This document shows, in pieces, positions 1 through 8,892 of a stretch of DNA of 8,892 nt. The stretch lies in IMG/VR virus record IMGVR_UViG_2778261527_000002, one strand, 5' to 3'. The notes under the pieces were generated by a model, which ran no database searches, was not told the origin of the DNA, and saw nothing but the letters and a program-made list of their open reading frames with translations. The position numbers and the translations under genes were made by a program. The stretch's first letter is position 1, and each line of letters begins with the position of its first letter. The DNA comes from a virus. Its lineage: Duplodnaviria; Heunggongvirae; Uroviricota; Caudoviricetes.

Positions 1-1
1 G

Positions 2-67
2 TACGCCAGAGTGGGCGCGAGACGTTACGACAACTGGAAGCTAAAACTGGGGCAACAAGATATCTGA
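2..67 (+). CDS. 3' end of an upstream gene running off the left edge (…YARVGARRYDNWKLKLGQQDI*); product unknown
   Basis: Frame is open from the window start to TGA at 65-67, which overlaps the next ATG (TGATG), suggesting translational coupling. Only 21 codons visible. Confidence 0.3.
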   Translation, partial: YARVGARRYDNWKLKLGQQDI

Positions 68-366
68 TGAGCGTTCTTGCCAGAGAGCTGGTTGCCAGTG
101 GCGATGTATACAACTCTGGTTACGGGTTATTCCCGTCTGAACAGGCTCGTAAGGACTGGCAAAATGCCCGCAAAAAACTCTCAAGGGCAAAGCTGAAGAA
201 AAAAACATCTGTGGTTGATCCGGACCTTATCTGGTCGTTACCAGACGGAGAAATACGCCGCTATGACAGGCGTCTGAACATAATCTGTCGCGAGTGCCGG
301 AATAGTGAAGTTATGCAGCGTGTACTGGCTTTCTATCAGGGGAATTTTCAGGAGGCGGCGCAGTGA
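67..366 (+). CDS. hypothetical protein, 99 aa, basic, one CxxC motif (ICRECRN)
   Basis: Complete ORF in the track; its start overlaps the upstream stop and its stop overlaps the next start (GTGA at 363-366). No family recognised. Confidence 0.5.
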   Translation: MSVLARELVASGDVYNSGYGLFPSEQARKDWQNARKKLSRAKLKKKTSVVDPDLIWSLPDGEIRRYDRRLNIICRECRNSEVMQRVLAFYQGNFQEAAQ

Positions 367-563
367 GCAGGATTGACTACCAGGAATTGGCTGCTGCTAA
401 CGCTTTCCTAGCTGATGTACGGGCGGTGGCGTTTAACGACCTTTGCGCGGCGTTTGCCAGGCACGCAAAAGTTGCAGGACTGGATGATGCCGATACCGTA
501 ACGCTTAAGGAAGTGACAGAAGCATTGTTGCATTGTGCGGAACAGATTCGCGCGCCTGAATAA
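363..563 (+). CDS. hypothetical protein, 66 aa, Ala-rich, probable GTG start
   Basis: ORF in the track; GTG start overlaps the stop of the preceding ORF; followed by an AT-rich intergenic region. Confidence 0.4.
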   Translation: MSRIDYQELAAANAFLADVRAVAFNDLCAAFARHAKVAGLDDADTVTLKEVTEALLHCAEQIRAPE

Positions 564-658
564 TTAAATTTAGTGTTGTAAATAAAATTTAATCCTTAAC
601 CGGAGGGATTTCTGCACCCTCAGAACATCAGGAGGCCGCCCGAAAGGGCGGTAATGAA

Positions 659-841
659 ATGCGAAAGTTCAGAATAATTATTGAAACGGGAATAGCTGGT
701 GGAGATTTTGAGGATGTATTCGAAGTGGATGATGGTGCGACACCAGATGAAATACAGGACGAAGCAAAAGAAATTTTCTTTAACTACTGCAATTACTCAT
801 ATCACGAAATAAAAGATGAGGAGGAAGAACAAAATGGCTGA
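659..841 (+). CDS. small highly acidic protein, 60 aa (about 18 Asp/Glu, C-terminal EEEE)
   Basis: ORF in the track; AT-rich region and two hairpins upstream (603-621, 636-651); its last codons overlap the next gene's start (ATGGCTGA at 834-841). Confidence 0.5.
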   Translation: MRKFRIIIETGIAGGDFEDVFEVDDGATPDEIQDEAKEIFFNYCNYSYHEIKDEEEEQNG

Positions 842-1010
842 TTTTGGTTCAACTAAATACAACGTCAGTTTTGAAGAATGGCATGAACTGTTAATGGACT
901 ATGCAGAGTTACGCGGTGGAAGTGCCGCTGATGCTGAAGCATGGCGTGATGACTACGAAGCAGGAAAAACTCCGGTCGAAGCATATTGTGATGAGTGGGG
1001 CGATGAATGA
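834..1010 (+). CDS. small highly acidic, aromatic-rich protein, 58 aa (MADFGSTKYNVSFEEWHELL…)
   Basis: AGGAGG at 819-824 sits 9 nt upstream of ATG 834, so 834 is preferred over the track's 816 start. Stop overlaps the next start (ATGA at 1007-1010). Confidence 0.55.
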   Translation: MADFGSTKYNVSFEEWHELLMDYAELRGGSAADAEAWRDDYEAGKTPVEAYCDEWGDE

Positions 1011-1522
1011 GCGAGATTAATTATCAGGAAGGACATGAAACGGCAGGGCAGGCAAAACCAGTTGCATGGCGATATCGCTACGTGAAAAAAGGCATTACGG
1101 ACTCACAGGGGGAGCCGTGGGTTGGTGACTGGAAATATGTACCGACAAAAGAGGATTGCAACGACAGGCCGAGCTATGAAATTCAGGCGTTATTCACTGC
1201 CCCGCCTGTGCCACTGACATCAGAAGGACTGGTTAAAGCCGTGCGCTTTTATGAACAGGTAAAGCGTGAGAATCCACCAGTCGAAACAGGAGCATGGAAA
1301 GATGCTGTTGATTGGGTACTCAAAGAGGCCTGCAGTGCTGTCATTCTGGGTAAAGCCGACAACCCACCAGCTTCCGGCAATCAGGTTAGCGAATTAACAA
1401 TGTGGGTTAAACGACTGGTCAGCCAACTGAAAAAAGCCAAGCCGGACTGCAAATTACCGGAGAAGGCGATGGACTACCTGAAGCGAAACGGACTGATAAG
1501 CGTGGAGGATGTTTTACGGTGA
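1007..1522 (+). CDS. hypothetical protein, 171 aa
   Basis: Complete ORF, translationally coupled to the upstream acidic ORF by an ATGA overlap; last gene of the five-ORF operon. No family recognised. Confidence 0.6.
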   Translation: MSEINYQEGHETAGQAKPVAWRYRYVKKGITDSQGEPWVGDWKYVPTKEDCNDRPSYEIQALFTAPPVPLTSEGLVKAVRFYEQVKRENPPVETGAWKDAVDWVLKEACSAVILGKADNPPASGNQVSELTMWVKRLVSQLKKAKPDCKLPEKAMDYLKRNGLISVEDVLR

Positions 1523-1661
1523 GATAGTAAATGCATGTAATGAGACGGGGGGTGTGAGGGGAGGCTTCATCTGGATAGATCTTGCACCGTTCATATGTTA
1601 TAAAAACAATTCCTACTGTTAAATCGTTGTTTGTTTTAGTTGCTATATTTAAGGAGTGAAT

Positions 1662-1919
1662 ATGCAGTTAATTGTTGATTACCCAGATCATAACATTTAT
1701 TCATCTTTTGTGGATGCGGATGCTGAACTTCGAGAGTTAAATGGTGGGGCAGTAGTTGTAATAACGGTAAAAATACCTCTTACTAGCACATCGGAACAGT
1801 TGTTTAATAAATACACTTGCGGGGAAAGTCTTCGTATTAAATTGAGGAATGGCGATGAATGGAAAATGTATTTCGTTATGCTTGATGGAGGGCGCTATAT
1901 ATTTTCCTCGCACCTGTGA
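1662..1919 (+). CDS. hypothetical protein, 85 aa, in an AT-rich island
   Basis: Strong SD AAGGAG at 1651-1656 with a 5-nt spacer to ATG 1662 (preferred over GTG 1656 in the track). Local composition is visibly AT-rich compared with flanking DNA. Confidence 0.55.
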   Translation: MQLIVDYPDHNIYSSFVDADAELRELNGGAVVVITVKIPLTSTSEQLFNKYTCGESLRIKLRNGDEWKMYFVMLDGGRYIFSSHL

Positions 1920-1991
1920 TAAAAATGATGAGCCGAGACTGTATTTACGGGACGCTGAGAGAATACCATAGAAAAGCTTATCTAACTTAAG

Positions 1992-1997
1992 TAGAAT
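1992..1997 (+). promoter_or_regulatory. candidate -10 element (TAGAAT) for the hok/mok mRNA
   Basis: Lies about 6-8 nt upstream of the predicted hok mRNA 5' end (GCGGGTGCTTGAGG at 2003), which resembles the recalled R1 hok mRNA 5' end. No convincing -35 found. Confidence 0.3.
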
Positions 1998-2002
1998 TGC
2001 TG

Positions 2003-2016
2003 CGGGTGCTTGAGGC
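2003..2016 (+). promoter_or_regulatory. hok mRNA 5' fold-back (fbi-like) element, complementary to 2378..2392
   Basis: GCGGGTGCTTGAGG pairs with CCTCAACGCACCCGC in the 3' UTR (8 bp + 6 bp with a 1-nt bulge). Adjacent 5' hairpin CTATCTGCC/GGCAGATAG at 2016-2051. Confidence 0.5.
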
Positions 2017-2049
2017 TATCTGCCTCAGGCATGAACACCAAAGGCAGAT

Positions 2050-2123
2050 AGAGAAAAGCCCCAGTTAACATTACGCGTCCTGCAAGACGCTTAACATTAA
2101 TCTGAGGCTCAATCTATGAACGG
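2050..2123 (-). ncRNA. sok: Sok-like antisense RNA (antitoxin) of the hok/sok locus; ends approximate
   Basis: Minus-strand promoter with -35 TTGCCT (complement of 2153-2158), exact 17-nt spacer and -10 TAACCT (complement of 2130-2135), matching the recalled R1 sok promoter layout (TTGCGC-17-TATCCT). Predicted transcript overlaps the mok SD and start and contains a ~15-bp imperfect hairpin (2064-2099) followed by a U-rich tract. Confidence 0.45.
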
Positions 2124-2328
2124 CAAATCTAGGTTAGCCTCTTACGTGCCGAAAGGCAAGGAGAAGCAGGCTATGAAGCAGCAAAAGGCGATGTTAATCG
2201 CCCTGATCGTCATCTGTTTAACCGTCATAGTGACGGCACTGGTAACGAGGAAAGACCTCTGCGAGGTACGAATCCGAACCGGCCAGACGGAGGTCGCTGT
2301 CTTCACAGTCTACGAACCTGAGGAGTAA
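2116..2328 (+). CDS. mok: Mok-like reading frame (modulator of killing), 70 aa, in frame with and N-terminally extending hok
   Basis: ORF in the track starting 19 codons upstream of the hok ATG. An in-frame mok resembles chromosomal mokC-type loci as recalled, whereas R1 mok is out of frame. Confidence 0.45.
   Translation: MNGKSRLASYVPKGKEKQAMKQQKAMLIALIVICLTVIVTALVTRKDLCEVRIRTGQTEVAVFTVYEPEE
2130..2158 (-). promoter_or_regulatory. candidate sok promoter (-35 TTGCCT, 17-nt spacer, -10 TAACCT)
   Basis: Hexamers read directly from the reverse complement; position inside the mok 5' region matches the hok/sok paradigm. Confidence 0.45.
2173..2328 (+). CDS. hok: Hok/Gef-family type I toxin, 51 aa (MKQQKAMLIALIVICLTVIVTALVTRKDLCEVRIRTGQTEVAVFTVYEPEE)
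   Basis: Single transmembrane helix plus the conserved RKDLCEV…EVAVF…YE motif; near-identical to recalled HokD(RelF)/HokC(Gef). SD AAGGAGAAG lies upstream of ATG 2173. Confidence 0.85.
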   Translation: MKQQKAMLIALIVICLTVIVTALVTRKDLCEVRIRTGQTEVAVFTVYEPEE

Positions 2329-2335
2329 GAGACTT

Positions 2336-2357
2336 GGCGAGGGAGAAATCCCTCGCC
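2336..2357 (+). other. perfect 9-bp stem with GAAA tetraloop (GGCGAGGGA-GAAA-TCCCTCGCC) in the hok 3' UTR
   Basis: Exact inverted repeat read from the sequence, 8 nt after the hok stop codon; likely an mRNA-stabilising or folding element. Confidence 0.5.
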
Positions 2358-2377
2358 GCCTCTGATGTGTCAGGCAT

Positions 2378-2392
2378 CCTCAACGCACCCGC
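2378..2392 (+). promoter_or_regulatory. hok mRNA 3' fold-back element, complementary to the 5' end (2003..2016)
   Basis: Long-range complementarity, the hallmark of hok-family mRNAs. Confidence 0.5.
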
Positions 2393-2397
2393 ACTTA

Positions 2398-2417
2398 ACC
2401 CGCTTCGGCGTTTTTTC
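2398..2417 (+). terminator. candidate intrinsic terminator of the hok transcript (short CGC/GCG stem, UUCG loop, T6)
   Basis: ACCCGCTTCGGCG followed by TTTTTT. The stem is only 3 bp, so it is weak on its own; the same motif recurs in stronger form at 3063-3088. Confidence 0.4.
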
Positions 2418-2471
2418 CGTTGATTAACTCTAGTTATTAGAGAACCGAACTTTTATTGATGGGGCAGGGAG

Positions 2472-2864
2472 ATGAAGAAACTTGTTTTAGTCGCAGGTGT
2501 AATGATTGCAACAGTAATGTTGGGAGGGTGTGCAGCAAAGGTCGATCCAGCGTTGAAAGCAGAAGCAATGAAGCCACTAACATGTAATGATGAAAAGCAA
2601 TGTGACTTTTATTGGAAACGAGCGCAATTCTGGTTGGCTAATAATTCCTCATGGAAAATTCAAACGGCGACAGACACGCTAATTTCCACTTATAATCCCT
2701 CTCCAAATAGTCCATTCCTCGCTTATCAAGTGAGTAAAATGCCAAATGAAGATGGATCCTCAAGAATTTTCATCAAGCCTTTTTGCGATAATATGTTTGG
2801 CTGTCAACCAAACCCCTATCAGGCAGTTGTTTCCTTTAAAAACTTCGTTAAAACAGGGCAGTAG
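2472..2864 (+). CDS. predicted lipoprotein, 130 aa, Cys-rich mature domain, function unknown
   Basis: N-terminal MKKLVLVAGVMIATVMLGGC looks like a signal peptide with an L-G-G-C lipobox. GGGAG SD upstream of ATG 2472. Five further Cys in the mature part suggest periplasmic disulfides. Confidence 0.7.
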   Translation: MKKLVLVAGVMIATVMLGGCAAKVDPALKAEAMKPLTCNDEKQCDFYWKRAQFWLANNSSWKIQTATDTLISTYNPSPNSPFLAYQVSKMPNEDGSSRIFIKPFCDNMFGCQPNPYQAVVSFKNFVKTGQ

Positions 2865-3063
2865 TGTATAGCTTGGACGATAAATTATTAGTGAAAACGC
2901 CGTAAACCCTCACCCAATGTGGACTAAGCCTATCAAACATGACTGTGATGATTAGTCCGTAGTTGTTGCCTATGAAATCTGGATTGAGTCAGGGTTTAAT
3001 CCAATAATTATTCTATCGTTCCTTTACAAGTCCGGTATATTACTTTCAGTTTGTTTTAGCATA

Positions 3064-3088
3064 CCCGCTTCGGCGGGTTTTGTTTTTT
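3064..3088 (+). terminator. rho-independent terminator (CCCGC-TTCG-GCGGG stem-loop plus T-rich tract)
   Basis: 5-bp GC stem with UUCG tetraloop followed by TTTTGTTTTTT, at the end of a ~200-bp ORF-free stretch. Confidence 0.65.
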
Positions 3089-3160
3089 CCTGGCATTCTG
3101 GTTTACAATTCGCACGCCAGCCTGAACAACTGGCACCTGCTGCGCCAGCAGAGACAACCG

Positions 3161-3439
3161 ATGGCGCACGATACCAAATTACACAATTCTAATGATTCTG
3201 CCGTCTTTGCCAGCAGGCGCGGACGGCGTTTTCACGTATTCAAATCAGACTGGTTCCAGCATCCTCCATGCACTGAAGAGCAGGCGGAATGGATAATTCA
3301 GTGTTACCGCAGGCGCGGATACGAGGTTAAGAAAGCCCTCAGCCTCGATTATCGTCACTGGATAATCTATGTCAGGCTCCCTTATTCCGAACGCCCACCG
3401 CGCCCATCCCGCACATACCAGCAACGGATCTGGAGGTAA
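3161..3439 (+). CDS. hypothetical protein, about 92 aa ([16 protein letters not shown]…); may be a junction artefact
   Basis: The track ORF (3080..3439) begins inside the terminator T-run, so ATG 3161 is the more plausible start. No clear SD. Its 3' end overlaps the start of the J-derived ORF in another frame. Confidence 0.3.
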
Positions 3440-5174
3440 CGTGCGGATATTACTTCGACCTGTTCTGGTACCGGAGAAAGAAGCCATCGTGGATAACGGG
3501 GCGCACTTTGACGGTGACCAGAGCGGCACGGTGAATGGTGTCACGCCGCCAGCAGTTCAGCACCTGACCGCAGAAGTCACCGCAGACAGCGGGGAATACC
3601 AGGTGCTGGCGCGCTGGGACACGCCGAAGGTGGTGAAGGGGGTGAGCTTTATGCTTCGCCTGACCGTGGCAGCGGACGACGGCAGTGAGCGGTTGGTCAG
3701 CACGGCCCGGACGACGGAAACCACATATCGCTTCACGCAGCTGGCGCTGGGAAATTACAGGCTGACAGTCCGGGCGGTAAATGCATGGGGACAGCAGGGC
3801 GATCCGGCATCGGTATTGTTCCGGATCGCCGCACCGGCAGCGCCGTCGCGGATTGAGCTGACGCCGGGCTATTTTCAGATAACCGCCACGCCGCATCTTG
3901 CGGTTTATGATCCGACGGTACAGTTTGAGTTCTGGTTCTCGGAAAAGCGGATTGCGGATATCAGGCAGGTTGAAACCACAGCCCGCTATCTTGGTACGGC
4001 GCTGTACTGGATAGCCGCCAGTATCAATATCAAACCGGGCCATGATTATTACTTTTATATCCGCAGTGTGAACACCGTAGGCAAATCGGCATTTGTGGAG
4101 GCCGTCGGTCGGGCGAGCGATGATGCATCCGGCTATCTGGATTTTTTCAAAGGCGAGATAGGGAAAACCCATCTGGCTCAGGAGCTGTGGACGCAGATTG
4201 ATAACGGTCAGCTTGCGCCTGACCTGGCTGAAATCAGGACGTCCATTACGGATGTCAGCAATGAAATCACGCAGACCGTCAATAAGAAACTGGAAGACCA
4301 GAGTGCGGCAATTCAGCAGATACAGAAGGTTCAGGTTGATACAAATAATAACCTGAACAGCATGTGGGCTGTGAAGCTGCAGCAGATGCAGGACGGACGC
4401 CTTTATATCGCGGGTATTGGTGCCGGTATTGAGAACACCCCTGACGGCATGCAGAGTCAGGTGCTGCTGGCGGCGGACAGGATTGCGATGGTTAATCCTG
4501 CGAATGGCAACACAAAACCGATGTTTGTTGGTCAGGGTGATCAGATATTCATGAACGACGTGTTCCTGAAACGCCTGACGGCCCCCACCATTACCAGCGG
4601 TGGAAATCCACCGGCATTTTCCCTGACACCGGACGGGCGACTGACGGCGAAAAATGCGGATATCAGTGGCAGTGTGAATGCGAACGCCGGGACGCTCAAC
4701 AATGTCACGATAAATGAAAACTGTCGGGTTCTGGGAAAACTGTCTGCGAACCAGATTGAAGGCGATCTCGTTAAAACAGTGGGCAAAGCTTTCCCCCGGG
4801 ACTCCCGTGCACCGGAGCGGTGGCCATCAGGGACCATTACCGTCAGGGTTTATGACGATCAGCCGTTTGACCGGCAGATTGTTATTCCCGCGGTGGCGTT
4901 TCGTGGCGCTAAACATGAGCGGGAGAATAACGATATTTATTCGTCATGCCGCCTGATAGTGAAGAAAAACGGTGCTGAAATTTATAACCGTACCGCGCTG
5001 GATAATACGCTGGTTTATACAGGTGTTATTGATATGCCTGCTGGTCGCGGTCACATGACGCTGGAGTTTTCGGTATCAGCGTGGCTGGTAAATGACTGGT
5101 ATCCCACAGCCAGTATCAGTGATTTGCTGGTTGTGGTGATGAAGAAATCCACCGCAGGCATCAGTATCAGCTGA
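3369..5174 (+). pseudogene. J: 5'-truncated tail-tip host-specificity protein J (about the C-terminal half, with the receptor-binding end); J similarity starts near 3465
   Basis: From [16 protein letters not shown] onward the translation tracks the recalled C-terminal half of lambda J (e.g. [32 protein letters not shown]). The first ~33 codons are unrelated, the frame closes at a TAA at 3363-3365, and there is no SD at ATG 3369. Whether the fragment is expressed is unknown. Confidence 0.75.
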
Positions 5175-5193
5175 ATTTTATAACCCATATACG

Positions 5194-5219
5194 GGCGCCA
5201 GAAATGGCGCCTTTTTTAT
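5194..5219 (+). terminator. rho-independent terminator downstream of J (GGCGCCA-GAAA-TGGCGCC plus T6)
   Basis: Perfect 7-bp GC-rich stem, GAAA loop, followed by TTTTTTATT. Confidence 0.75.
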
Positions 5220-5241
5220 TGCAGAAAAGCGAGAGGTAATT

Positions 5242-5841
5242 ATGCGTAAAGTTTGTGCAGCCATTTTGTCCGCAGCCATCTGTCTGGCCGTATCCGGTGC
5301 GCCTGCATGGGCGTCTGAGCATCAGTCCACGCTGAGCGCGGGGTATCTTCATGCCCGGACGAACGTTCCCGGCAGTGATGATCTGAACGGGATTAACGTG
5401 AAATACCGTTATGAGTTTACGGACACACTGGGGATGGTGACGTCGTTCAGCTATGCAGGAGACAAGAATCGCCAGATTACCCGTTACAGCGATACCCGCT
5501 GGCATGAAGATTCCGTTCGTAACCGCTGGTTCAGCGTAATGGCGGGGCCGTCTGTGCGCGTGAATGAATGGTTCAGCGCGTATGCGATGGCGGGTGTGGC
5601 TTACAGCCGTGTGTCGACTTTCTCCGGGGATTATCTCCGCGTAACTGACAACAAGGGGAAAAAGCACGATGTGCTGACCGGAAGTGATGACGGTCGCCAC
5701 AGCAACACGTCTCTGGCGTGGGGAGCTGGCGTGCAGTTTAACCCGACCGAATCCGTGGCCATTGATGTCGCTTATGAAGGCTCCGGCAGTGGTGACTGGC
5801 GCACTGACGGGTTCATCGTGGGTGTTGGTTATAAATTCTGA
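5242..5841 (+). CDS. lom: Lom outer-membrane protein (Ail/Lom/OmpX family beta-barrel), 199 aa
   Basis: Signal peptide [25 protein letters not shown]-terminal aromatic residue (…GVGYKF), and a translation matching recalled lambda Lom. Sits between J and stf as in lambda. Confidence 0.9.
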
Positions 5842-5867
5842 TTAGCCAGGTAACACAGTGTTATGAC

Positions 5868-5895
5868 AGCCCGCCGGTTCAGGCGGGCTTTTTTG
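5868..5895 (+). terminator. rho-independent terminator downstream of lom (AGCCCGCC-GGTTCA-GGCGGGCT plus T6)
   Basis: Perfect 8-bp stem followed by TTTTTTG. Confidence 0.75.
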
Positions 5896-5905
5896 TGGGG
5901 TGAAT

Positions 5906-8892
5906 ATGGCAGTAAAAATTTCAGGTGTACTGAAAGACGGCACAGGAAAACCGGTACAGAACTGCACAATCCAGCTGAAAGCAAAACGTAACAGTACCAC
6001 GGTGGTGGTGAACACGCTGGCATCTGAAAATCCGGATGAAGCCGGGCGTTACAGTATGGACGTTGAGTACGGTCAGTACAGCGTTATTCTGTTGGTGGAA
6101 GGATTCCCGCCGTCACATGCCGGGACCATCACAGTGTATGAAGATTCCCGACCCGGTACGCTGAATGATTTTCTCGGTGCCATGACGGAGGATGATGCCC
6201 GTCCGGAGGCACTGCGCCGCTTTGAACTGATGGTGGAAGAGGTGGCGCGTAACGCGTCCGCAGTGGCGCAGAACACAGCAGCCGCGAAGAAGTCAGCCAG
6301 CGATGCCGGCACATCAGCCCGTGAGGCGGCAACCCGTGCGACTGATGCTGCAGGCTCAGCACGTGCAGCCAGCACGTCAGCCGGACAGGCCGCGTCGTCG
6401 GCTCAGTCAGCGTCTTCCAGCGCAGGAACGGCATCAACAAAGGCCACTGAAGCATCAAAAAGTGCTGCCGCCGCAGAGTCTTCAAAAAGCGCGGCAGCTA
6501 CCAGTGCCAGTGCCGCGAAAACGTCAGAAACGAATGCTGCAGCGTCACAACAATCAGCAGCCACTTCTGCATCCACCGCGACGACGAAAGCGTCAGAAGC
6601 TGCCACCTCAGCCCGGGATGCGGCGGCTTCAAAAGAGGCGGCAAAATCATCAGAAACGAGCGCAGCCTCGAGCGCCAGTAGTGCAGCCTCCTCGGCAATG
6701 GCGGCAGGCAATTCCGCGAAGGCGGCCAAAACGTCTGAGACAAACGCTAAGTCCTCTGAAACGGCAGCAGAACAGAGTGCCTCCGCAGCAGCAGGCTCAA
6801 AAACAGCGGCTGCATTATCTGCCAGTGCCGCGTCAACAAGTGCCGGGCAGGCCTCAGCCAGTGCCACCGCCGCCGGAAAATCGGCAGAAAGCGCCGCATC
6901 GTCCGCTTCAACAGCCACAACGAAGGCTGGCGAAGCCACTGAACAGGCCAGCGCAGCAGCGAGGTCTGCTTCCGCAGCGAAGACATCCGAGACGAACGCG
7001 AAAGCGTCGGAAACCAGCGCAGAATCCTCAAAAACGGCTGCCGCATCGTCCGCCAGTTCGGCGGCGTCATCGGCATCATCTGCGTCTGCTTCAAAAGATG
7101 AGGCGACCAGACAGGCATCAGCAGCGAAAGGCAGCGCCACGACGGCATCCACGAAGGCGACAGAGGCAGCTGGTAGTGCGACGGCGGCAGCTCAGAGCAA
7201 AAGTACGGCGGAATCCGCGGCAACGCGCGCCGAGACAGCAGCAAAACGGGCAGAGGATATTGCATCCGCCGTGGCGCTTGAGGATGCGAGCACGACGAAA
7301 AAGGGGATAGTACAGCTCAGCAGTGCGACCAACAGCACTTCCGAGTCACTGGCGGCAACGCCAAAGGCAGTAAAATCAGCCTATGACAATGCAGAGAAAC
7401 GTCTGCAGAAAGACCAGAACGGCGCTGATATACCCGATAAGGGACGCTTCCTGAACAACATTAACGCGGTCAGTAAAACAGACTTTGCTGATAAGCGTGG
7501 TATGCGTTATGTGCGGGTTAACGCTCCTGCAGGTGCAATATCTGGAAGATATTACCCTGTTGTTGTTATGCGTTCTGCTGGCTCAGTAAGCGAACTGGCA
7601 TCAAGGGTCATTATCACCACGGCAACGCGAACCGCAGGCGATCCGATGAATAACTGCGAGTTTAACGGGTTTGTTATGCCTGGTGGCTGGACTGACAGGG
7701 GGCGTTATGCTTATGGAATGTTCTGGCAATATCAAAACAATGAACGAGCCATCCACTCAATAATGATGAGTAATAAGGGCGATGATTTGCGCTCTGTGTT
7801 CTATGTTGATGGTGCTGCTTTCCCTGTTTTTGCGTTTATTGAAGATGGCCTGTCAATATCCGCACCTGGTGCTGATCTCGTTGTTAATGATACGACCTAT
7901 AAGTTTGGGGCAACAAATCCGGCGACTGAATGTATCGCGGCGGACGTTATCCTTGATTTTAAGAGTGGCCGTGGTTTTTATGAGTCCCATTCGTTAATCG
8001 TTAACGATAACTTGTCGTGCAAAAAACTTTTTGCCACAGACGAAATTGTAGCGCGTGGTGGTAATCAGATTCGAATGATAGGTGGGGAGTATGGTGCATT
8101 ATGGCGTAATGATGGCGCTAAAACTTACCTGCTGCTTACCAATCAAGGTGATGTTTATGGTGGCTGGAATACATTAAGACCGTTTGCTATTGATAACGCA
8201 ACCGGCGAACTGGTTATTGGAACCAAACTGTCCGCAAGTCTGAACGGTAATGCATTAACAGCAACAAAGCTGCAAACGCCAAGACTGGTTTCTGGTGTTG
8301 AGTTTGATGGTTCCAAAGATATTACTTTAACCGCCGCGCATGTGGCTGCTTTTGCCAGAAGGGCAACGGATACATATGCCGATGCGGATGGTGGCGTTCC
8401 CTGGAATGCCGAATCAGGCGCTTATAATGTCACCCGCTCTGGCGACAGCTATATTCTGGTTAACTTCTATACCGGAGTCGGAAGTTGCCGGACCCTGCAG
8501 ATGAAGGCGCATTACAGAAATGGTGGTCTGTTCTACCGTTCTTCAAGAGATGGCTATGGTTTTGAGGAAGACTGGGCAGAAGTTTATACCTCGAAAAATC
8601 TTCCACCAGAAAGCTACCCAGTCGGCGCACCAATCCCGTGGCCATCAGATACCGTTCCGTCTGGTTATGCCCTGATGCAGGGGCAGACTTTTGACAAATC
8701 TGCCTACCCGAAACTTGCTGCCGCTTATCCGTCAGGCGTGATCCCTGATTTGCGTGGCTGGACGATTAAGGGCAAGCCCGCCAGTGGTCGTGCCGTATTG
8801 TCTCAGGAACAGGATGGCATTAAATCGCATACCCACAGCGCCAGCGCATCCAGTACGGATTTGGGGACGAAAACCACATCGTCGTTTGATTA
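5906..8892 (+). CDS. stf: side tail fibre protein Stf, 3'-partial (about 995 codons, runs off the window end)
   Basis: N-terminus [31 protein letters not shown]… and C-terminal segment [76 protein letters not shown]… match recalled lambda Stf. Hand translation found no stop from 5906 to 8890. Confidence 0.9.
6250..7300 (+). repeat. low-complexity Ala/Ser/Thr-rich coding repeats (recurring [17 protein letters not shown]-type units) in the Stf shaft
   Basis: GC-rich imperfect tandem repetition visible in DNA and protein; it produces long spurious ORFs in other frames on both strands. Confidence 0.7.

Follow-up and report, generated by a model that had tools for sequence, protein, structure and literature searches.

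Why does the homology to the tail-tip gene J begin so abruptly in the middle of this stretch of DNA, fused to sequence that does not encode J? The stretch analyzed here, which we call the window, comprises 8,892 bases and is the complete draft contig NKDH01000052.1 of the E. coli assembly GCA_002456195.1. An earlier note had placed a recombination junction at about position 3465 and offered two readings of it: either a defective prophage remnant or a foreign cassette that had replaced the upstream tail genes. Our analysis very probably settles this question in favor of the remnant. The window can be assigned to a defective E. coli prophage of the lambdoid, Qin/Rac-like type, in which one internal deletion joined codon 10 of a DUF968 gene to codon 592 of J at the 8-bp sequence GTACCGGA. 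The features of the window are collected in Table 1.

Table 1. Features of the 8,892-base window (positions refer to the window)
Feature	Position	Strand	Evidence or remark
DUF977 gene, 3' part, and several small early-region ORFs	left end of window	+	
hok/sok type I toxin-antitoxin locus	2004-2328	+	early-right region, retained left arm
sok-family RNA	2004-2178		Rfam RF01794, 111.7 bits
hokD CDS	2173-2328	+	annotation carried over from the 100% identical reference prophage
Predicted lipoprotein gene, 130 aa	2472-2864	+	retained left arm; phrog_16082, E 2.6e-84
Intrinsic-terminator-like hairpin ACCCGC-TTCG-GCGGGT and T-run	3063-3088	+	upstream of the nin-region genes
nin-region ORF, 92 aa, intact	3161-3439	+	WP_024168546.1 (hypothetical protein in intact relatives); phrog_1212, E 4.9e-36
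DUF968/HNH gene remnant	3432-3467	+	Shine-Dalgarno GGAGG 3432-3436, GTG start 3441, first 9 codons VRILLRPVL
Deletion junction, 8-bp microhomology GTACCGGA	3468-3475	+	three-way alignment
Tail-tip gene J, 3' part (codons 592-1159 and stop)	3468-5174	+	100% identity to 2009C-3133 gpJ residues 592-1159
Chimeric in-frame ORF DUF968(1-9)::J(592-1159), 577 aa	3441-5174	+	frame arithmetic, translation
lom (Ail/Lom outer-membrane protein), intact	5242-5841	+	retained right arm
Side tail fiber gene stf, 5' 2,987 bases, runs past the window end	5906-8892	+	PF08400, PF21446, PF07484; retained right arm

All convincing genes of the window lie on the + strand. Within the hok/sok locus, a 70-aa ORF (2116-2328) corresponds to the overlapping mok-like frame. 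The locus is kept in a defective prophage and may stabilize the remnant. The product of the 130-aa ORF carries a lipoprotein-type signal sequence (…MLGGC…), has no match to any Pfam family and falls into phrog_16082, a group of unknown function. Its gene is annotated as hypothetical in both intact prophages described below, where it is conserved as a moron-like gene between hokD and the nin region. The terminator that had been noticed ahead of the junction is present, and its hairpin is identical in the intact prophage (0 mismatches in the alignment over 1-3467). The overlapping 92-aa ORF reported in the same place also exists. Its normal position is just ahead of DUF968; phrog_1212, to which it belongs, is of unknown function, and a Pfam search with this ORF found nothing. 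On the other side of the junction, lom is flanked by terminator-like hairpins at 5193-5212 and 5868-5889. Between 6300 and 7300, stf has a GC content of ~0.61 and an AT skew of up to +0.4, and spurious long ORFs lie within the gene in other frames or on the opposite strand (e.g., 6303-7310 on the + and 6403-7152 on the - strand). This part of stf probably encodes a repetitive stretch of the fiber shaft with biased composition.

We mapped the junction by a megablast comparison of window positions 2400-5200 with 5,426 complete E. coli genomes and 50,697 phage records. Thousands of matches to J were obtained, every one of which started at query position 1069, i.e., window position 3468, and none of which reached further upstream; the start of J had been estimated correctly to within 3 bases. 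No match spanning the junction was detected in any of the complete genomes (0 of 5,426) or among the 50,697 phage records, and the exact 40-base junction pattern had no match in a contig collection containing one genome per species. Carriers were located via the 601-aa product that gene callers assign to the fused frame. The same junction is found in four assemblies (GCA_904809585.1, GCA_904810055.1, GCA_002456195.1, and the Logan assembly of ERR3062200), with 0 mismatches between carriers and window over the compared bases, and by their sequences the carriers look clonal. One of the carrier contigs has a length of 71.8 kb.

A three-way alignment with the intact prophage of E. coli 2009C-3133 (locus L001) resolved the breakpoint to the base, as the earlier note had proposed. 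The window follows the left reference through position 3475 and the right reference from position 3468 on, without any inserted bases in between. The sequence GTACCGGA stands at both parental endpoints (L001 9105 and 32422) as a short direct repeat, of which a single copy is left in the window. Elsewhere in the reference, this 8-mer occurs once on the same strand (L001 21821, in the capsid gene) and twice on the opposite strand. Since the computed probability of a microhomology of at least 8 bp at a random join is only ~1e-4, we regard the 8-bp overlap as a mechanistic signature. The left endpoint is located 27 bases into the DUF968/HNH gene, in codon 10, and on the right the J gene (1159 codons) is entered at the first base of codon 592. 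A search of the junction for microhomology or IS remnants had also been suggested. The former is what we found, but not the latter: there is no IS end, recombinase site, or other repeat at the junction, and both flanks are 100% identical to the reference prophage.

Where does the DNA upstream of the junction come from? Window positions 1-3467 match 43 complete genomes over at least 80% of the length of this arm, three of the genomes at 100% identity, and in these 43 genomes the upstream arm stands ahead of an intact DUF968 gene. In strain 2009C-3133 (NZ_CP013025.1), window positions 1-3475 correspond to 4299637-4303111 with 100% identity (position 3467 to 4303103), and positions 3468-8892 align from 4326421 onward with one mismatch before position 8494 (J arm, 4326421-4328153). 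The two arms are found on the same strand and in the same order, 23,317 bp apart. Strain APEC E19025 (NZ_CP126931.1) shows equal identity on both arms and the same arrangement, with the arms separated by 21,979 bp; the size difference between the two prophages is accounted for by an ISVsa5 insertion in 2009C-3133. The RefSeq gene order in 2009C-3133 begins with exonuclease, dicB, ydfC, ydfB, the repressor region, ydaT, replisome organizer, and DUF977, followed by hokD, the lipoprotein ORF, the 92-aa ORF, DUF968, rusA, Q, tRNA-Ile, and tRNA-Thr. It continues with holin, lysozyme, spanin, HNH, ISVsa5, terminase, portal, protease, and capsid genes and ends with connectors, tail genes, tape measure, M/L/K/I homologues, gpJ (1159 aa), lom, stf, tfa, and the chromosomal zinT. 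The DNA upstream of the junction is, judged by this alignment, the replication/hokD/nin (early-right) region of the same prophage in its native order and orientation. Calling it unrelated sequence was correct insofar as it does not encode J, but not in the sense of foreign DNA.

The zinT-adjacent prophages of 2009C-3133 and APEC E19025 thus share both 100% identical arms and the gene order with the window, but in contrast to it they still contain the 22-23 kb between DUF968 and J, and their J gene encodes all 1159 aa. Moreover, they adjoin zinT, whereas the carrier contig L002 (GCA_904809585.1) probably has its prophage at an ssrA-type att site. The ISVsa5 copy of 2009C-3133, an IS10-type element (L001 15371-16579 of NZ_CP013025.1), lies between the HNH and small-terminase genes and is absent from APEC E19025. 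Because of this insertion, the "intact" reference prophage of 2009C-3133 may itself already be defective in packaging.

Compared to its closest intact relatives, the prophage seems to have lost about 22.0-23.3 kb, whereby the exact length and content are read from these relatives, the carrier element being mosaic (see below). By their gene order, the deletion would have removed the rest of DUF968, rusA, the antiterminator gene Q, tRNA-Ile and tRNA-Thr, the holin, lysozyme, and spanin genes, the genes for terminase, portal, protease, capsid, head-tail connectors, tail tube, and tape measure, the gpM/L/K/I homologues, and the hub half of J. We infer that this deletion was not homologous, site-specific, or IS-mediated. 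Eight bases are below the length needed for RecA-mediated recombination, and the shortness of the homology suggests a RecA-independent event. Such an illegitimate recombination at short homology would have occurred either by microhomology-mediated end-joining after a double-strand break or by slippage of the replication template. An adjacent deletion mediated by an IS element was considered and rejected, since no IS abuts the junction. ISVsa5, the single IS of the reference, is found 6-7 kb within the deleted segment and is missing from E19025. The deletion is recent, because the arms have not diverged from their intact relatives (0 mismatches in 1-3475 and 1 in 3468-8493) and lom, stf, and tfa are still intact.

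A prophage reduced in this way would be unable to activate late transcription, to lyse the cell, or to build particles, but would keep the immunity/replication/hokD region and the J'-lom-stf-tfa end. At the locus, of which we viewed some 10 kb to the left and to the right of the junction and to which statements on gene absence refer, the 21.8-kb L002 runs from recE to tfa without Q, lysis, terminase, or head genes and without tail genes upstream of the J remnant. In L002, stf is complete (1132 aa) and followed by tfa. The N-terminal half of J and the rest of the tail module are missing, as had been expected: codons 1-591 of 1159 are gone, and so are the upstream tail, head, and lysis genes. 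Both arms map to one intact prophage, and the interpretation as a recombination junction in a defective prophage remnant holds.

We then asked what the fusion encodes. The J reading frame is closed upstream by the TAA at 3363-3365 exactly as described before, and the 33 codons from this stop to the junction show no similarity to J (blastp, E<=10), in agreement with their description as non-J sequence. The stop of the 92-aa ORF is located at 3437-3439. In the RefSeq record the DUF968 CDS starts at 4303077, equivalent to window position 3441, and this GTG start is supported by the phrog_96 profile, which aligns from DUF968 residue 1. The join is in frame and leads to a chimera of 577 aa from the GTG at 3441, while gene callers start at the ATG at 3369, giving 601 aa. 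This in-frame fusion to the first nine DUF968 codons had been missed before, as had the 8-bp microhomology. The DUF968 domain itself (PF06147; YdfU-like HNH endonuclease) comprises residues 160-343 of the 351-aa protein and is absent from the window, where only codons 1-9 are left. A split J with an N-terminal partner upstream had been named as a case that would speak against the remnant. This does not apply, since the 92-aa ORF has no blastp similarity to J and is assigned to phrog_1212. The frame directly preceding the junction was likewise rejected as such a partner for lack of similarity to J.

The Pfam domains of the lost part of J, FNIII-A_GpJ (PF24801, residues 86-207) and Phage-tail_3 (PF13550, 330-496), are absent from the ORF in the window. 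The retained part contains Ig_J (610-714, E 3.6e-42), Ig_J_second (716-818, E 5.2e-40), Phage_Tail_Tip (872-1000, E 3.1e-31), and Ig_GpJ_C (1029-1159, E 1.8e-39). Compared to a functional gpJ, the FNIII/Ig pair, the fiber, and the C-terminal receptor-binding domain are present, but the N-terminal hub domains are not. Instead of gpM/L/K/I-type genes, the upstream neighbors are hokD, the lipoprotein ORF, the 92-aa ORF, and the DUF968 stub. The J protein of the reference prophage is colinear with lambda gpJ, the tip attachment protein (PDB 8IYK, 8XCG-8XCK), over residues 1-836 and in the C-terminal fiber/receptor-binding domain. Lambda gpJ consists of hub domains, a long linker, FNIII-1, FNIII-2, a helical shaft, a central straight fiber, and the receptor-binding domain (PMC11101478). 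Placed on this layout, the breakpoint falls into the linker between the hub domains and FNIII-1. All hub domains are lost, and the entire fiber part, from FNIII-1 and FNIII-2 through the alpha-helical shaft and the central straight fiber to the receptor-binding domain, is kept. Unlike lambda gpJ, the J of the window lacks all hub domains (residues 1-591), which build and close the tail tip, and the product of the chimera is therefore predicted to be unable to build one. A promoter scan found no sigma-70-like site on the + strand between the terminator (3088) and the start at 3441. Because of the missing hub domains, the one-in-three chance of an in-frame join, and the lack of a promoter-like site on the + strand, we regard the in-frame join as an accident and the chimeric ORF as a putative pseudogene remnant.

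The carrier prophage has a composite history. In L002, the homology to the zinT-adjacent references stops near the end of tfa. For the 3' end of stf, tfa, a GIY-YIG gene, a cytosine methyltransferase gene, an EcoRII-type endonuclease gene, and a 3' fragment of ssrA, the match is with the prophage next to ssrA in strain G749, the J of which is only 94% identical to that of the window. The window differs from the 2009C-3133 prophage at 16 positions, 15 of which are crowded into 8494-8830, in the last 400 bases and within stf, and this cluster marks the start of a recombinant tail-fiber segment. The prophage in L002 ends at the 3' ssrA fragment (20680-20724), which is followed by AT-rich island DNA, whereas the intact prophage ends at zinT (L001 38855-40444). 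The carrier prophage is thus a mosaic with an exchange point in the 3' part of stf and probably sits at ssrA. The EcoRII-type endonuclease gene of L002 (19238-20445) contains a 1-bp deletion leading to a frameshift relative to the intact G749 gene (L008 22839-24047). No such damage affects the neighboring cytosine methyltransferase gene (L002 17770-19203), which is intact, and the pair resembles a restriction-modification system on its way to an orphan methylase.

Could the junction have arisen in some other way than by a deletion within one prophage? The window is a short draft contig of 8.9 kb, and prophage repeats frequently break or mis-join assemblies. But an origin from mis-assembly or a chimeric read has next to no probability: the identical junction in four independent assemblies, which come from different projects and assemblers and include the 71.8-kb contig, excludes such an artefact for practical purposes, and the 8-bp overlap is far below assembler k-mer sizes. 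Replacement of the upstream tail genes by a foreign cassette is extremely improbable as well. The GC content does fall from ~0.6 in J to ~0.4-0.5 upstream of the junction, and the genes found there have nothing to do with the tail. However, all 3,475 upstream bases belong to the DUF977-hokD-nin region of the same prophage, to which they are 100% identical with the native order preserved, and the 43 complete genomes carry this arm before an intact DUF968 gene. The mosaic nature of the carrier, with the left arm and J'-lom of the zinT type and the 3' end of stf, tfa, the restriction-modification genes, and the ssrA fragment of the G749 type, gives somewhat more room to an illegitimate join between two different prophages of the same genome, or between a resident prophage and a phage entering the cell. 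We nevertheless consider this unlikely. Both arms are 100% identical to one intact prophage, colinear and in the same orientation, in two unrelated strains, and the J part shares just 94% identity with the G749 prophage. The mosaic boundary lies ~5 kb downstream of the junction, in stf, where lambdoid phages often exchange by homologous recombination, and a chromosomal deletion from zinT to ssrA would take out hundreds of kb of the core genome.

A different objection accepts the deletion within one prophage but takes the chimera for a selected, expressed gene. Its product would be a free central-fiber/receptor-binding protein that benefits the host by receptor masking or is available to recombination as a host-range module. 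In favor of this reading, the frame is preserved across the fusion together with the native Shine-Dalgarno sequence and GTG start, the position of the breakpoint in the linker leaves every fiber domain whole (scheme of PMC11101478), and isolated C-terminal fragments of gpJ are able to fold and to bind LamB (PDB 8xcj, 9wca; PMC11101478). But chance alone gives an in-frame join one time in three, the stretch between the terminator at 3063-3088 and position 3441 contains no sigma-70-like promoter on the + strand, and transcription of the nin region in a repressed lysogen needs pR and N. In addition, the protein lacks a signal peptide that would take it to an outer-membrane receptor, the carriers are all identical, and the chimera is carried by 0 of 5,426 complete genomes. 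Selection for such a gene is therefore very unlikely. The same low probability applies to its most specific form, in which the chimera is translated from the DUF968 start, folds as a free trimeric fiber with a working receptor-binding domain, and is kept by the host together with lom-stf-tfa, for example as a decoy with receptor-binding activity, as an exclusion factor, or as a host-range cassette that incoming lambdoid phages could acquire by recombination.

For annotation, the deletion within a single prophage means that the 601-aa "J" gene on these contigs should be described as a pseudogene that has lost its 5' part and is fused to a DUF968 stub, and that the prophage belongs among the defective ones. 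Events of this type are already known and form part of the ordinary decay of prophages. What the locus adds is a base-resolved and very recent case, in which one microhomology-mediated deletion strips the Q, lysis, packaging, head, and tail genes while the immunity region, hok/sok, lom, and the tail-fiber genes stay. The junction sequence could be used as a lineage marker for the carrier clone. Beyond annotation, the significance is small.

A literature search on microhomology in defective prophages returned nothing relevant, but deletions of this kind are known from E. coli in the laboratory. Deletions of tens of kb occur at microhomologies after double-strand breaks; those described span 12.9-35 kb, part of them at microhomologies (PMC4872102), and A-EJ deletions of up to 40 kb are cited there (Chayot et al. 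2010, as cited in PMC4872102). Like the deletion in the window, these microhomology-mediated events (alternative end-joining) comprise tens of kb and keep a few bases of direct homology once; unlike it, they are laboratory events that start from a defined double-strand break. Incomplete prophages preferentially lose the genes for lysis, terminase, and portal but retain those for tail fibers (PMC7744054), and the loss and retention pattern observed here matches that statistical report.

The best textbook parallel is the cryptic prophage Rac of E. coli K-12 (recE ... ydaW, rzpR', trkG, ynaA, lomR', stfR, tfaR). Like the prophage of the window, Rac is lambdoid, and keeps a left part with recE, immunity, and replication genes and a lom-stf-tfa right end; internal deletion has cost it the head genes and most of the tail genes. 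The stfR of Rac and the stf of the reference prophage share 96.5% identity. We considered ynaA of Rac as a second truncated J, but it has no similarity to J and is a tape-measure fragment. The deletion in Rac was a separate event with endpoints of its own: on the right it ends within lom (homology from L001 34400), where ynaA is joined to mid-lom. Unlike the window, Rac carries trkG and an IS5 insertion, whereas the deletion described here has its endpoints in DUF968 and J and has not been followed by further decay.
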